From Clostridia bacterium (lineage in GTDB: Bacteria > Bacillota > Clostridia > Oscillospirales > CAG-382), in contig JAFVXP010000069.1 of the NCBI GenBank assembly GCA_017501055.1, forward strand, positions 1-27,590: a DNA stretch of 27,590 nt. The letters run 5' to 3'. The translations under genes were made by a program, and so were the position numbers. The first letter of the stretch is position 1. Each line of letters starts with the position of its first letter. Positions 22,972 to 27,590 of this stretch are shown piece after piece. The notes beneath the pieces were generated by a model that saw only the letters and a program-made list of their open reading frames with translations, ran no database searches and had not been told where the DNA came from.

Positions 22972-24903
22972 TTATCTCAACTTTTCATTAATCTCTGTCG
23001 TAAACTTAACTATCATATCCGAAACGGACATAACGCCAAGGTCTTCACCCTTACGGTTACGAACCGAAACAGCACCCTGCTCCTGTTCCTTTGCGCCGAC
23101 GATGAGCATATAGGGTATCTTGTTAAGCTGTGCTTCACGGATACGCTTGCCCATGGTTTCGTTACGGTCGTCAAGATCAACACGTATACCGCAAGCCTCC
23201 ATCTTCTTTGCAACCTCTGCCGCATAACCGTTCATATCTGCATTGACGGGAATAACGGTTGCCTGCGTGGGAGAGAGCCACATCGGGAGCGCACCTGCAT
23301 ATTTTTCAAGAAGGAGCGCAAGCGTGCGTTCATAGCAACCCATGGAGGTGCGGTGGATTATATAAGGATTAACAAGCTGGTTGTTAGAATCGACGTATTC
23401 CATACCGAACTTCTTTGCAAGAAGCATATCTATCTGGATAGTAACACTGGTGTCTTCCTTGCCGAAAACGTTCTTGCACTGAATATCAAGCTTCGGACCG
23501 TAGAATGCCGCTTCGTCGATACCGATTTCGTAATTTATGCCGTTTTCGTCAAGCAATCTGCCCATAATCTCCTGAGCTTCGTTCCACTGTTCGGGAGTAC
23601 CCTCGTATTTGTCGGTACGCTTGGGGTCCCATTGTGAGAAACGGAAGGTGCAGTCTTCCCAAAGACCGAGAGTTTCAAGACAATGCTGTGCAAGGTCGAT
23701 ACAGCCCTTAAATTCTTCTTCAAGCTGGTCGGGACGGAGAACAAGGTGTCCTTCGGAAATAGTGAACTGACGGACACGGATAAGACCGTGCATTTCACCG
23801 CTGTCCTCATTACGGAAAAGCGTTGAGGTCTCGCCCAAGCGCATGGGAAGATCACGGTAGGAACGGCGCTTGTTGAGGAATACTTGGTATTGGAACGGGC
23901 AGGTCATGGGACGGAGCGCAAAGCATTCCTTGGTTTCGTCGTCTGCATCGCCCATAATGAACATACCGTCACGGTAGTGGTCCCAGTGTCCCGAGATCTT
24001 ATAAAGCTCTCTCTTTGCCATAAGAGGAGTTTTTGTGAGAAGATAACCTCGTTTTTGTTCTTCGTCTTCGATCCATCTCTGCATAAGCTGGATAACTCTT
24101 GCGCCCTTGGGCATAAGAATGGGAAGACCCTGACCGATAACGTCAACGGTGGTGAAATATTCAAGCTCTCTGCCGATCTTGTTGTGGTCACGCTTTCTTG
24201 CTTCTTCAAGCTGTGCGATGTGTGCGTTAAGCTCGTCCTTGCTGGGGAATGCCGCACCGTAAACACGCTGAAGCTGTTTGTTGTTCTGGTCGCCCTTCCA
24301 GTATGCACCCGTGCACTGCATAAGCTTTATAGCTTTAACTGCGCCGGTAGAGAAGAGGTGAGGACCTGCGCAAAGGTCAACGAATTCACCCTGACGGTAG
24401 AAACTGATAACAGCGTCCTCGGGGAGCTCGTTTATAAGCTGAACCTTATAGGGTTCCTCCTTTTCTTCCATAAGTGCAATCGCTTCGTTTCTCGGAAGCT
24501 CAAAGCGTTCGATAAGAAGGTTTTCACGGACGATCTTCTTCATTTCGTCCTCGAGTTTTTTCAAAACCTCGGGAGTGAAGGGGATCTCGCTGTCAAAATC
24601 ATAATAAAAACCGCTTTCGATTGCAGGTCCGATAGTAAGCTTTGTTTCGGGATAAAGACGCTTAACTGCCTGCGCAAGAATATGTGCGGCGGTGTGACGG
24701 AAGACCTGCTTTCCTTCCGCCTCGGCAAAGGTGAGAAGCGCAATATCGTCGCCTTCCTTGACAGCGGTGTTAAGCGCACAAACGGCACCGTTCACCTTTG
24801 CGGCGATAACGGCACGAGAGATAAGCTCTGCTTCCTTTGCGGCTTCGTATACGGTATTTGCGTTTTCAACGCTCACTTGATTACCGTTAATGATAAGGTT
24901 CAT
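22972..24903 (-). CDS. thrS: Threonine--tRNA ligase
   Basis: TGS domain, FRHTAAHILAQAV, DLCAGPH, RDHNKIG, LRPMTCP, GLIRVRQF, AAFYGPKLD, IIHR, anticodon-binding domain; 643 aa. Confidence 0.98.
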   Translation of the reverse strand: MNLIINGNQVSVENANTVYEAAKEAELISRAVIAAKVNGAVCALNTAVKEGDDIALLTFAEAEGKQVFRHTAAHILAQAVKRLYPETKLTIGPAIESGFYYDFDSEIPFTPEVLKKLEDEMKKIVRENLLIERFELPRNEAIALMEEKEEPYKVQLINELPEDAVISFYRQGEFVDLCAGPHLFSTGAVKAIKLMQCTGAYWKGDQNNKQLQRVYGAAFPSKDELNAHIAQLEEARKRDHNKIGRELEYFTTVDVIGQGLPILMPKGARVIQLMQRWIEDEEQKRGYLLTKTPLMAKRELYKISGHWDHYRDGMFIMGDADDETKECFALRPMTCPFQYQVFLNKRRSYRDLPMRLGETSTLFRNEDSGEMHGLIRVRQFTISEGHLVLRPDQLEEEFKGCIDLAQHCLETLGLWEDCTFRFSQWDPKRTDKYEGTPEQWNEAQEIMGRLLDENGINYEIGIDEAAFYGPKLDIQCKNVFGKEDTSVTIQIDMLLAKKFGMEYVDSNNQLVNPYIIHRTSMGCYERTLALLLEKYAGALPMWLSPTQATVIPVNADMNGYAAEVAKKMEACGIRVDLDDRNETMGKRIREAQLNKIPYMLIVGAKEQEQGAVSVRNRKGEDLGVMSVSDMIVKFTTEINEKLR

Positions 24904-24921: not shown

Positions 24922-25125
24922 AAAAAAGCCGACACATTACCGAAAGTTCGGCAAAATGTCGGGGTGCAGATAAGATCCACACGGTTCCACCCGTGATTTA
25001 ACTTAAAAATTAAATTGTCGGCGCAAAACAGGCGGTATCTGTTACAGCGTATCTTGTTGCAATTCCAGCCCAATTGTTGCAACTCTCTGGAAAGCCGTTT
25101 TGTAATAGACGTGTTCTGTTTCTTG
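24922..25125 (-). ncRNA. T-box riboswitch (Thr)
   Basis: Stem I with CAGAGAG and GGCTGGAA loops; candidate specifier ACC at 25036-25034; antiterminator CGGG-UGGAACC-GUG...CAC-CCCG (bulge 24989-24983); overlapping terminator CCGACA..UGUCGG-U6. 5' boundary approximate. Confidence 0.9.
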
Positions 25126-25141
25126 ATGCTCCTTAAGGTTG

Positions 25142-25254: not shown

Positions 25255-25710
25255 ATGAAATGTCCTTTGTGTAACCACGCAGAAAGCAAGGTTATAGACT
25301 CTCGTCCTTCCTCGGACGGAAGCTCGATACGCCGCCGCAGAGAGTGTCTTGAATGTCAAAAACGCTTCACGACCTATGAAAATATCGAAACGCTCCCTCT
25401 TATAGTAATCAAGAAGGATATGTCCCGTGAGACCTTCGACAGAAACAAGATATTAAACAGCATTATCCGTGCCTGCGATAAACGTCAGGTAACCCTTTCC
25501 CAAATGGACAACCTTGTTTCCGAAATAGAGCTTTCTCTCCAAAATTCGCTCCAAAACGAAATCACCTCCGACCGTATAGGTGAATTGGTTATGGAAAAAT
25601 TAAAAGAGCTTGACGAGGTTGCATATATCCGCTTTGCTTCGGTCTACCGTCAGTTTAAAGACATCGGAGCATTTATGGAAGAGCTTCAAAAGCTCCTTGC
25701 AGAAAAATAA
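25255..25710 (+). CDS. nrdR: Transcriptional repressor NrdR
   Basis: [35 protein letters not shown] cone, [15 protein letters not shown]. Confidence 0.98.
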
Positions 25711-25726
25711 AAATACGTTGGATTAT

Positions 25727-25761
25727 AGGAAGACGCTTAAAAAAGCAGTCTTCCTTTTTTT
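25727..25761 (+). terminator. Terminator after nrdR
   Basis: AGGAAGAC-GCT-taaaaa-AGC-a-GTCTTCCT followed by T-run. Confidence 0.85.
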
Positions 25762-25802: not shown

Positions 25803-25831
25803 TTGACTTTATCGAATTAACGTGATATAAT
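25803..25831 (+). promoter_or_regulatory. sigma-A promoter for Tyr-rich leader
   Basis: TTGACT(25803-08)-N17-TATAAT(25826-31) with TG extension. Confidence 0.85.
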
Positions 25832-25865
25832 GCTTAAAAATTACTTAAGAAGGAGCAGCAAAATA

Positions 25866-25940
25866 ATGAAAAATAAGTTTTATTATTACTATTATTATTT
25901 TAAAAAGGGCTGCCCGTCTTATGTGATGACCAAGGCATAA
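25866..25940 (+). CDS. Putative Tyr-rich leader peptide MKNKFYYYYYYFKKGCPSYVMTKA
   Basis: SD AAGGAG 25850-55, ATG 25866, six consecutive Tyr codons 25881-98 (TAT TAT TAC TAT TAT TAT), TAA 25938-40; below the ORF-track size limit. Confidence 0.75.
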   Translation: MKNKFYYYYYYFKKGCPSYVMTKA

Positions 25941-25965
25941 ACGCTTTGGGTTGAATAAAACGGCA

Positions 25966-26011
25966 GTCCGTATTTGCTATGCTTTAAGGCAGAATGCAGT
26001 ACGGATTTTTT
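25966..26011 (+). terminator. Attenuator terminator
   Basis: GTCCGTA..TGC...GCA.TACGGAT followed by T6; left arm overlaps the predicted antiterminator strand 25960-69. Confidence 0.72.
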
Positions 26012-26061
26012 GTTTGCATAAAATAAAGAAAGGAAAATCGCTTTAATCCGTTAATTTACTA

Positions 26062-26147: not shown

Positions 26148-27590
26148 ATGACGAGAGAACAAATAATCTGGCTTACGATAGGCGTTTATGCTGTGTTTAT
26201 ATTCGTGGTCGGATTCCTATCAAACAGCAAATCAAAAAATATGGGTGATTTCACCGTCGGCGGTCGAAACGCAGGCGCTTGGATGTCTGCCTTTTCGTAC
26301 GGAACGGCGTATTTCTCCGCAGTAATGTTTATCGGTTATGCAGGCGGTACGGGCTGGAAATACGGTATATGGGGTGTTCTGCCCGGTATCGGAAACGCAA
26401 TAATCGGCTCGCTTTTCGCTTGGATGGTGCTTGCAAAGCGCACACGCTCCGTTACGAGAGAAAAGGGAATAACCTCGATGCCTCAGTTCTTTGAAAAATG
26501 CTATGGCTCGAGAGCAATGAAGCTCTTTTCCGCAATCGTAATATTCGTTTTCCTCTTGCCCTATTCGGCATCGGTTTATAAAGGACTTACAAGCGTTTGC
26601 TCGGTTCTTTTGGGTATTGACGAATGGATCTGTATGCTTGTTATCGCTGTTGCGGGCGCACTTATCGTTGTCGCAGGCGGATATATGGCGGCACTCAAGG
26701 CGGATTTCATTCAGGGTGCGGTAATGCTCGTCGGCGTGATCGTGCTTATCTTCTCGGTAATGAACAGCGATAACGTCGGCGGTCTGACAGAAGGATTTAA
26801 GAATATCGCTTCCGAAACGAGCAAATTAAGTCTTAACGCATTCGACCATATCGGCCTTTGGGCAACCGTGCTTATGACCTCGTTCGGTACTTGGGGCTTG
26901 CCTCAGATGATACATAAATATTACGGTATCCGTGATGATAAAGAGGTTTCCAGAGGAACGGTAATCTCCACGGTATTCGCATTTGTCGTTGCAGGCGGCG
27001 GTTATCTTATCGGCTCGCTTTCGCATCTCTTCTTTAATGAACTTCCCGAGGGCGGAACCGACTATCTTGTTCCGAACCTTCTTATAAAATCGGGTGTTTC
27101 GGATATACTTGTCGGCGTTATCCTCGTATTGCTTATTGCGGCAAGCGTTTCCACGCTTTCCTCGGTAACCATAACGGCGGCTTCTACGTTGACGATGGAT
27201 ATCGTTCAGGACAGATTTATCAAAGACAAGGAAAAGGATATCTCTCTTCTTACAAAAATCGTTTGCGTTGCATTCGTTATGCTTTCCTTCCTTATCGCTT
27301 GGAAGGGAACGGGCACACCGATCCTTGATATGATGAGCTATTCATGGGGCATAATCTCGGGTAGCTTCCTCGCACCCTACGCCGTTGCGCTTTATTATAA
27401 GAAGACCACAAAGGTCGGCGCTTGGGCAGGAATAATTTGCGGTTTTGCTATCGCATTGCCTCCTCTTGTTGCAAAGCTTTCCGGCTCTGCGTTTGCTCTC
27501 GGCAAATTCGGACCCTTAAGCGGCATGGGACCGCATTTCGCTTGTCTTGCTATGGCTGTTTCGCTTTTGGTGGTTATAGCTGTCAGCACA
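26148..27590 (+). CDS. Sodium:solute symporter (SSS/PutP-PanF family), 3' truncated by window
   Basis: Open frame of 481 codons to the window end: MTREQIIWLTIGVYAVFIFVVG..DFTVGGRNAGAWMSAFSYGTAYFSAVMFIGYAG..SFGTWGLPQMIHKYY..LIAASVSTLSS. Missing from the ORF track because no stop lies in the window. SD weak. Confidence 0.93.
   Translation, partial: MTREQIIWLTIGVYAVFIFVVGFLSNSKSKNMGDFTVGGRNAGAWMSAFSYGTAYFSAVMFIGYAGGTGWKYGIWGVLPGIGNAIIGSLFAWMVLAKRTRSVTREKGITSMPQFFEKCYGSRAMKLFSAIVIFVFLLPYSASVYKGLTSVCSVLLGIDEWICMLVIAVAGALIVVAGGYMAALKADFIQGAVMLVGVIVLIFSVMNSDNVGGLTEGFKNIASETSKLSLNAFDHIGLWATVLMTSFGTWGLPQMIHKYYGIRDDKEVSRGTVISTVFAFVVAGGGYLIGSLSHLFFNELPEGGTDYLVPNLLIKSGVSDILVGVILVLLIAASVSTLSSVTITAASTLTMDIVQDRFIKDKEKDISLLTKIVCVAFVMLSFLIAWKGTGTPILDMMSYSWGIISGSFLAPYAVALYYKKTTKVGAWAGIICGFAIALPPLVAKLSGSAFALGKFGPLSGMGPHFACLAMAVSLLVVIAVST

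Follow-up and report, generated by a model that had tools for sequence, protein, structure and literature searches.

The leader at positions 25803-26011 of the DNA described here is very probably a ribosome-mediated transcription attenuator, in which a leader peptide tunes the switch to tyrosine and raises an operon that encodes a symporter, a PaaK-like ligase and IorAB. The window, that is the whole stretch analysed, comprises 27,590 nucleotides (positions 1 to 27,590 of the forward strand of contig JAFVXP010000069.1, assembly GCA_017501055.1) of an uncultured gut Clostridia bacterium assigned to CAG-382 within the Oscillospirales. The leader architecture is far beyond chance and recurs in 81 distinct sequences of other genomes; the distinct leader sequences pooled for the comparisons below number n=81. 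Attenuation logic of the trp/his/phe type had already been proposed in a first-pass annotation made from the letters of this DNA alone, and it is backed here by the genes that follow the homologous leaders, by start codons kept in frame, by the Tyr bias of the codon run and by RNA structures found in every leader that was folded.

All parts of the leader lie on the forward strand. Promoter P1 (25803-25831) consists of TTGACT (25803-25808), a 17-nt spacer and TATAAT (25826-25831) with a TG extension (TGaTATAAT), an 11/12 match with a predicted transcription start near 25838; the closest relative retains this shape in its paralogous DAHP-synthase leader. Region 1 (25842-25859, from the minimum free energy (MFE) fold) is the 5' untranslated region (5'UTR) including the Shine-Dalgarno (SD) sequence GGAG (25852-25855), which stands 10 nt ahead of the ATG at 25866. 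The leader open reading frame (ORF), evident from the sequence and from the ORF list, occupies 25866-25940 and encodes in 24 codons, followed by a stop, the peptide MKNKFYYYYYYFKKGCPSYVMTKA. Its F-YYYYYY-F run is made of six Tyr codons (25881-25898) between Phe codons at 25878-25880 and 25899-25901. One codon past this run and still inside the ORF begins region 2, the 5' arm of the antiterminator (25907-25917; RNA GGGCUGCCCGU, DNA GGGCTGCCCGT). It is followed by an inner hairpin found by folding (25930-25949), CCAAGGC (25930-25936) with GCUUUGG (25943-25949; DNA GCTTTGG), whose loop holds the leader stop codon (25938-25940), and then by region 3, the 3' arm of the antiterminator (25960-25969; RNA ACGGCAGUCC, DNA ACGGCAGTCC), which is recognised by folding and by conservation. 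Regions 2 and 3 are complementary over 8 bp, one bulged C and 2 bp more, and enclose the inner hairpin. Promoter, SD and 24-residue ORF were thus all found as the first-pass annotation had placed them, and the pairing of 25907-25917 with 25960-25969 around the CCAAGGC/GCTTTGG hairpin was confirmed as well. The intrinsic terminator (25966-26011), supported by folding and covariation, has its stem at 25966-26006 and its T tract at 26006-26011. The last four bases of region 3, GUCC (25966-25969), double as the base of its stem, so that the overlap claimed earlier stands, whereas the 3' end needs correction: it reads TACGGA plus six T (26006-26011), and not TACGGAT plus six more. The entire leader folds 4.96 standard deviations below dinucleotide shuffles. 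A longer ORF of 36 codons, starting from the ATG at 25830, was rejected because this start lies within the -10 box of P1.

Per-sequence folding was carried out for 39 distinct leaders. The helix between regions 2 and 3 around the inner hairpin was obtained in 39/39 (mean z -4.6), and the same holds for the terminator (mean z -4.3). In the terminator alignment 98.5% of the cells are paired, compensatory changes occur in two pairs, and 0/500 shuffles reach the covariation score. The antiterminator helix is predicted by RNAalifold with 99% of the cells paired and is nearly invariant in sequence; beyond its outer pairs, one further pair covaries (C-G / U-G / U-A). The inner hairpin was found in all 39 folded leaders, its stems being diverse (GAACG/CGUUC, CCGAGA/UCUCGG, GCAUUAAA/UUUAAUGC and others), and the stop codon lies within or beside it across the family. 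This hairpin was judged by single-sequence folds; the MAFFT alignment is unusable in this part. The search for homologous Tyr/Phe-run ORFs with covarying stems that had been suggested for this locus therefore delivered in-frame ORFs and a covarying terminator, but outer antiterminator pairs that lack covariation.

A third helix, absent from the first-pass annotation, competes with these two. The 5'UTR with its SD pairs with region 2 and the bases that follow it (~25909-25925). Duplexes of cognate 5'UTR and region 2 reach on average -18.7 kcal/mol compared with -10.3 kcal/mol for shuffled 5'UTRs, and the complementarity is specific to the clade, since cross-clade pairs attain only -8.8 and -13.0 kcal/mol. 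According to these models, the helix formed by regions 1 and 2 (1:2) can act as an anti-antiterminator and as a sequestor of the SD. The MFE structure of the full window leader consists of 1:2 and the terminator (-52.7 kcal/mol), while without the 5' part the MFE structure is the antiterminator, and the terminator loses its base. A choice of helix by the position of the ribosome would be geometrically compatible with the 1:2 helix, with this MFE switch and with the spacing between the run and region 2. Folding constrained by a ribosome footprint still drew 1:2; such folding cannot model steric exclusion across a ribosome.

From the sequence we infer translation of the ORF, stalling of the ribosome on it, the actual 3' end, the activity of a second promoter and the substrate of the operon, and the switch would work as follows. 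Transcription would start from P1, and the nascent RNA would offer three helices, 1:2, 2:3 (the antiterminator) and 3:4 (the terminator). If no ribosome were on the leader, 1:2 would form, region 3 would stay free, the terminator would form and transcription would stop near 26011. If Tyr-tRNA, or to a lesser degree Phe-tRNA, became scarce, a ribosome would stall on the F-YYYYYY-F codons. The loop that separates regions 1 and 2 contains these control codons, and the stalled ribosome would keep region 1 away from region 2; the freed region 2 would pair with region 3, the base of the terminator would be lost, and RNA polymerase would read through. With plentiful Tyr-tRNA the ribosome would pass region 2 and run as far as the stop codon in the inner-hairpin loop, where it would sit between regions 2 and 3 and let the terminator form. 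The earlier proposal that a ribosome at the stop covers 25907-25917 itself does not hold, as the expected footprint (~25923-25953) is that of the inner hairpin, between the antiterminator arms. Past the terminator lies the second predicted promoter, P2 (26062-26089; TTGAAA, 16 nt, TATAAT; 11/12 match), and control would therefore be additive and not all-or-none: read-through from P1 would add a starvation-induced component to a basal transcription of the operon from P2.

Further evidence comes from the reading frame. In 78 of the 81 distinct leaders an SD and an ATG stand in frame with the aromatic run, and the frame is open to region 2; the control frames gave 0 and 1. Conservation of the run in frame with a start, which the first-pass annotation had named as a check, was hence borne out. 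The leader peptides measure 17 to 25 residues and change in length by whole codons, the run ends one codon ahead of region 2 in 79/81 leaders, and the stop codon precedes CAGUCC by 17-39 nt (median 24). Within the run codons vary synonymously (TAT 197/TAC 80, TTT 253/TTC 50) and swaps between Y and F are common, a pattern that points to a run constrained as tRNA identities. One could instead imagine a real switch in which the small ORF is incidental and the choice of helix is set by an RNA-binding protein, a tRNA or a small ligand. Regions 2 and 3 are nearly invariant, as for a binding site, and the same bacterial family has T-boxes on related genes, both of which would suit this idea. However, no Rfam family, T-box included, matches the leader or 20 homologous loci, the in-frame SD and ATG contrast sharply with the control frames, and changes within the run are either synonymous or between Phe and Tyr codons, while the Tyr content of the run follows the regulated genes. 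We consequently consider such a switch very unlikely.

Behind the run, five codons are frozen at synonymous sites (AAG 80/81, TGC 81/81, NCG), and at the same time non-synonymous changes that preserve pairing are frequent (GGC/GAC, CCG/UCG). The tail is therefore constrained as an RNA helix and not as a peptide, and a small-protein or peptide-level role of the conserved tail was rejected by this codon-position evidence. The same holds for an arrest peptide similar to TnaC or SecM, in which the tail F-K-K-G/D-C-P/S-S would stall the ribosome on a free metabolite and not on tRNA charging. Although the amino acids behind the run are strongly conserved throughout the family, this conservation is one of nucleotides, with synonymous sites frozen and pair-keeping swaps of G/D and P/S being common. 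Moreover, a ribosome arrested on the tail would occupy region 2 and thereby promote termination, whereas biosynthetic genes would be expected to follow the reverse logic. An arrest peptide thus appears scarcely credible, and ribosome-mediated attenuation by the aromatic codons remains the reading that we prefer.

The window leader belongs to a family with more than 100 copies in metagenome-assembled genomes (MAGs) from animal guts, assigned to Acutalibacteraceae and other Oscillospirales. A DNA search of relatives detected the leader at ten loci in the same genus and, in the closest relative, a second leader copy in another context. A covariance model spanning the stretch from the aromatic run to the T tract, the start codon being left out of the search model, found 36 copies in 32/61 genomes of the genus and copies in 6/15 genera of the bacterial family. 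A second model added copies from two genomes outside the order and from five more families within it. Finally, a scan with an exact pattern of one genome per GTDB species yielded 85 stretches, 80 of which were analysed, and about 75 of these are genuine leaders among the matches listed. The genuine ones were found in MAGs from animal guts, under the labels Acutalibacteraceae, Oscillospiraceae, Eubacteriales or Clostridia. Five pattern matches, in Syntrophales, Gemmatimonadaceae, Acidobacteriota and Chloroflexaceae, were dismissed as chance, since none combines a short aromatic leader ORF with aro genes downstream. No Rfam 15 family matched the window between 24700 and 26400 at E<=1 or the 20 homologous loci at E<=0.1, and the window leader fits none of the covariance models of the Rfam leader families (Phe_leader, Trp_leader, His_leader, Leu/phe_leader and others). 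It works like the Rfam attenuator families, yet belongs to none of them. An unusual arrangement was seen at one locus (L198, ~1440-1820; G350:C68:11028-11345), where two whole Phe/Tyr attenuators with the leader peptides MMNSKFYFYYFKKGCPSYVMSKV and MTSNKFFYYFYFTKGCPHSYAFK stand in tandem ahead of a single DAHP synthase gene; the genome in question falls outside the order and has 7% contamination.

The genes behind these leaders are almost uniformly aromatic. In all but one copy with readable downstream sequence, the first gene past the terminator encodes a type-I DAHP synthase, PheA (chorismate mutase/prephenate dehydratase), a fusion of chorismate mutase and AroB (CM-AroB), a class I/II aminotransferase followed by pheA, or the symporter. 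The operons then run on with aroB, aroC, aroE/aroK and aroQ, or with aroA and tyrA. Judged from sequence, this gene context is the strongest single argument that Phe/Tyr codons act as the sensor. The sole exception is an intact leader in an Oscillospiraceae MAG (L132), behind which, after ~550 nt, genes for desulfoferrodoxin, a MarR-type regulator and DegV follow; this context may reflect a rearrangement or a misassembly.

In addition, the codon run differs with the target. Uninterrupted runs of five to six Tyr codons occur in 6/6 symporter-linked leaders (five distinct peptides) compared with 1/75 other leaders, and the lone other leader with five consecutive Tyr codons controls a DAHP synthase-aroA-tyrA operon. 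The share Y/(Y+F) amounts to 0.70 in symporter leaders, to a mean of 0.47 in DAHP-synthase leaders (n=48) and to a mean of 0.43 in pheA-type leaders (n=24), the longest Tyr run in the latter two groups being about two on average. Specificity would thus be legible in the codon run, with mixed F/Y codons for genes of the common pathway and Tyr runs for the symporter operon and a tyrA operon. The family as a whole would sense Phe and Tyr, and the window copy would be its Tyr-biased derivative. In two leaders (L029/G063, L042/G065) the run has decayed to YFCDF and CFCNF, and one of them carries a mutated region 3 as well. Both precede a pheA that is truncated or fused to aroB, and sensor and target appear to decay together there.

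Where the window leader came from can be read from its relatives. A maximum-likelihood tree built from leader DNA unites the pheA-type leaders in one clade (98/95) and places the symporter leaders, as two groups, within the DAHP-synthase leaders, while a single clade of symporter leaders was not rejected (approximately unbiased test, p 0.365). The window leader is 81% identical, promoter included, to the DAHP-synthase leader of the closest relative. By this evidence it would be a copy of a DAHP-synthase attenuator, retuned toward tyrosine. The symporter gene itself starts at 26148 and continues past the window end at 27590 (forward strand; Pfam PF00474, 1.8e-40). A promoter of the P2 type is found at the same place before its orthologue in nearly all 27 orthologous loci, most of which are leaderless; in several leaderless relatives P2 and the symporter come immediately after nrdR and its terminator. 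As P2 is kept in loci without leader, right behind the nrdR terminator, it is probably ancestral, and the cassette of P1, leader and terminator was inserted upstream of it. In the window, an nrdR-like ORF (25255-25710, from the ORF list) likewise precedes the leader, and its intrinsic terminator, read from the sequence (25728-25761, forward strand; GGAAGAC...GTCTTCC plus T7), shields the leader from nrdR transcription. Ahead of P2 stands a conserved box, GCTTTAATYCGNT...CTATTG (~26034-26061). Most orthologous symporter operons of the genus are preceded by it too, whether they carry a leader or not, and it could serve as an UP element or as the operator of some regulator.

This history permits another explanation, namely that P1, leader and terminator are a relic, or an independent small gene, copied from the DAHP-synthase locus, and that P2 alone drives the operon. 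The conservation of P2 before mostly leaderless orthologues and the kinship to the DAHP-synthase leader fit such a scenario, and so does the gap of 136 nt between terminator and gene, compared with mostly 20-50 nt elsewhere. Nevertheless, promoter, SD, ORF, both hairpins and orientation are kept in 6/6 symporter-linked copies, and the species carrying them have symporters 77-100% identical. The runs of symporter leaders became richer in Tyr, whereas leaders before a broken pheA decayed instead. Furthermore, nothing blocks read-through transcripts from P1 from running past P2 into the operon, and a leader peptide with a terminator alone would be without known function. A relic is thus improbable in our view, and we return to a working attenuator in what follows.

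The first-pass annotation had expected Tyr-dependent control of what lies downstream, a gene of the sodium:solute symporter family (SSS). The aromatic-linked context supports this, but the target is more than the symporter alone. The operon comprises, in this order, the symporter, a PaaK-like AMP-forming ligase, IorA, IorB and, in this genome, a second PaaK-like ligase. The order holds in nearly all 27 orthologous loci, with two showing IorA directly behind the symporter, and in nearly all loci the ligase lies a few bases behind the symporter. IorA (692 bits) and IorB (266 bits) score above their NCBIfam cut-offs, the first ligase matches TIGR02155 with 481 bits, which is below the equivalog cut-off, and the symporter reaches no NCBIfam equivalog. 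The operon is also present on contig C94 of the same genome, which overlaps the window end. There, C94 (L201 1-649) corresponds to window positions 27319-27400 and contains the 3' part of the symporter gene with few differences and an in-frame TGA, a mismatch that is due to strain heterogeneity or assembly error.

AMP-forming arylacetate-CoA ligases together with IOR have been proposed to be anabolic, with methanogens and Bacteroides using them to assimilate aryl acids by reductive carboxylation (PMC6737245, PMC13285125). Since the switch proposed here would open when tyrosine is scarce, we read the present operon in the same anabolic direction. It would import an aryl acid, by the logic of the Tyr codons 4-hydroxyphenylacetate, and carboxylate it reductively to 4-hydroxyphenylpyruvate for tyrosine synthesis; that the operon imports 4-hydroxyphenylacetate and converts it to tyrosine is our inference, by analogy with the proposed anabolic systems. 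In the closest relative, tyrA and a DAHP synthase gene share contig and strand with the DAHP-synthase leader, and therefore these organisms are probably not Tyr auxotrophs. In the genome of the window, the contig with the DAHP-synthase gene (C98, L202) begins inside this gene, and the expected leader, a near-repeat of the window's, is missing from the assembly; the near-repeat may have broken the assembly at this point.

T-boxes provide a second link between this transporter family and tyrosine. A scan of 21 loci with paralogous symporters, which have 39-47% identity and were monocistronic wherever this was looked at, revealed a T-box at 14 (L171, L175, L178-L180, L182, L184-L191), with 13 specifiers being UAC (Tyr) and one UUC (Phe). 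The same tool that readily finds these T-boxes gave no T-box match on the window leader. Thus T-boxes tie the transporter family to tyrosine supply, and both sensing devices coexist in one bacterial family. Going by sequence, the T-box symporters appear to make up a Tyr-regulated, so far undescribed branch of the sodium:solute symporter family, and our literature search found no description of a Tyr T-box symporter. Three other observations concern RNA elements in these genomes. Upstream of the threonyl-tRNA synthetase gene of the window (22972-24903, minus strand), a weak T-box match at 24957-25126 on the minus strand (26.5 bits compared with a gathering score of 93; E 0.0017) is probably a divergent Thr T-box. 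At L173 (2893-3142; G176) a UUC (Phe) T-box lies directly 3' of a paralogous symporter gene and 5' of the next gene on the same strand. Near a DAHP-synthase leader (G013 contig C15; L058 2701-3020, minus strand), two matches to the Gut-1 RNA (RF01706) reach 42.9 and 41.4 bits, below the gathering score of 50.

Several points weigh against a tyrosine-tuned, ribosome-mediated attenuator with the role outlined above. The distance of 10 nt between SD and ATG is longish. The six outer antiterminator pairs show no covariation because both arms are invariant, and their backing consists of conservation and energy. A ribosome at the stop codon does not cover region 2, so that its block of the 2:3 helix is a steric or kinetic argument. 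P2 lies between the terminator and the symporter, and the operon can accordingly be transcribed without the leader. With regard to the substrate, the Tyr T-boxes on the paralogues would fit tyrosine itself just as well. The only sequencing run with the sequence, which contained 40% of the sampled words, consists of low-depth contigs that leave a gap at the leader, and it is uninformative on RNA ends. Finally, Bacillota have been classed as a phylum of runaway transcription (PMC13323073), and a ribosome-dependent attenuator, which needs a ribosome close behind the polymerase, is therefore somewhat unexpected.

The last point can be turned around. If the attenuators are real, more than 100 ribosome-dependent switches in Bacillota would imply that ribosomes stay close enough behind RNA polymerase on these leaders. 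The leaders offer a natural test case for the coupling of transcription and translation in a phylum from which it is thought to be absent (PMC13323073). An uncatalogued RNA family would then govern the shikimate/Phe/Tyr pathway across the Oscillospirales, which are abundant gut and rumen bacteria. Likewise, operons of symporter, PaaK-like ligase and IOR in gut Clostridia would run from 4-hydroxyphenylacetate to tyrosine and not in fermentation. The direction of the operon is thus hinted at by its switch, and this bears on how gut anaerobes produce or consume metabolites of the phenylacetate type (PMC13285125). The leader might also serve as a compact Tyr-responsive part for synthetic biology in anaerobes. 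In our literature search we found no published account of this leader family or of any Tyr-codon leader, in agreement with the first-pass annotation, which knew of no characterised Tyr-run leader of this kind. Taken together, one might speculate that the window holds the first tyrosine-specific leader-peptide attenuator, born by copying a Phe/Tyr attenuator from a DAHP-synthase operon and retuning it, that its on-when-starved logic is the first regulatory evidence for the anabolic operons, and that ribosomes would track the polymerase closely. We hold this wider proposal tentatively and put it slightly short of an even chance.

The closest mechanistic counterparts are the Escherichia coli leaders pheL-pheA and pheM-pheST (Rfam Phe_leader; PMC3082878, PMC11802643), and the window leader works like trpL and hisL too. 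As in the phe leaders, a short ORF with a regulatory codon run is coupled to mutually exclusive antiterminator and terminator helices, and like pheL, which controls chorismate mutase/prephenate dehydratase, relatives of the window leader precede pheA. However, there is no kinship in sequence or Rfam family, and the present leaders belong to Clostridia and not to gamma-proteobacteria. In contrast to the E. coli phe leaders, the runs of the family are mixed Phe/Tyr and that of the window copy has six Tyr codons; region 1 of the window leader is the 5'UTR with its SD, the control codons lie in a loop, and region 2 is inside the ORF. The window copy furthermore differs by its predicted control of an uptake and conversion operon with a second promoter.

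For members of the DAHP-synthase type, the closest functional analogue, as far as the cited account of it goes, is the aroR leader of Corynebacterium glutamicum upstream of aroF (Neshat et al. 2014), in which Phe-Tyr-Phe codons are reported to respond to Phe and not to Tyr (PMC11802643). Both have mixed aromatic codons that attenuate a DAHP-synthase operon. By that same account, aroR is actinobacterial and has three aromatic codons, whereas the window leader is unrelated to it in sequence, has six Tyr codons and acts on another target.

Within the Firmicutes, leader-peptide attenuation, a textbook mechanism elsewhere, is an exception beside T-boxes. The first-pass annotation had stated that Firmicutes normally sense Tyr by T-boxes. 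The Tyr T-boxes on the paralogous symporters agree with this statement, but leader-peptide attenuators, although rare in Firmicutes, are known there: His leaders have been predicted in the Bacillus cereus group, Peptostreptococcaceae and Erysipelotrichales (PMC9413887). Like the leaders described here, they rest on comparative genomics, exist alongside T-boxes and sometimes precede transporter genes. They differ in amino acid, in taxa and by an unrelated sequence, and PMC9413887 reports no aromatic or Tyr leader. Tyr T-box leaders (RF00230), in turn, share the predicted signal of the window leader, as uncharged tRNA-Tyr leads to read-through in T-boxes and would do so here. However, the T-box binds the tRNA directly and without translation, whereas the window leader, which has no T-box features, would read the same shortage through a ribosome stalled on its Tyr codons.

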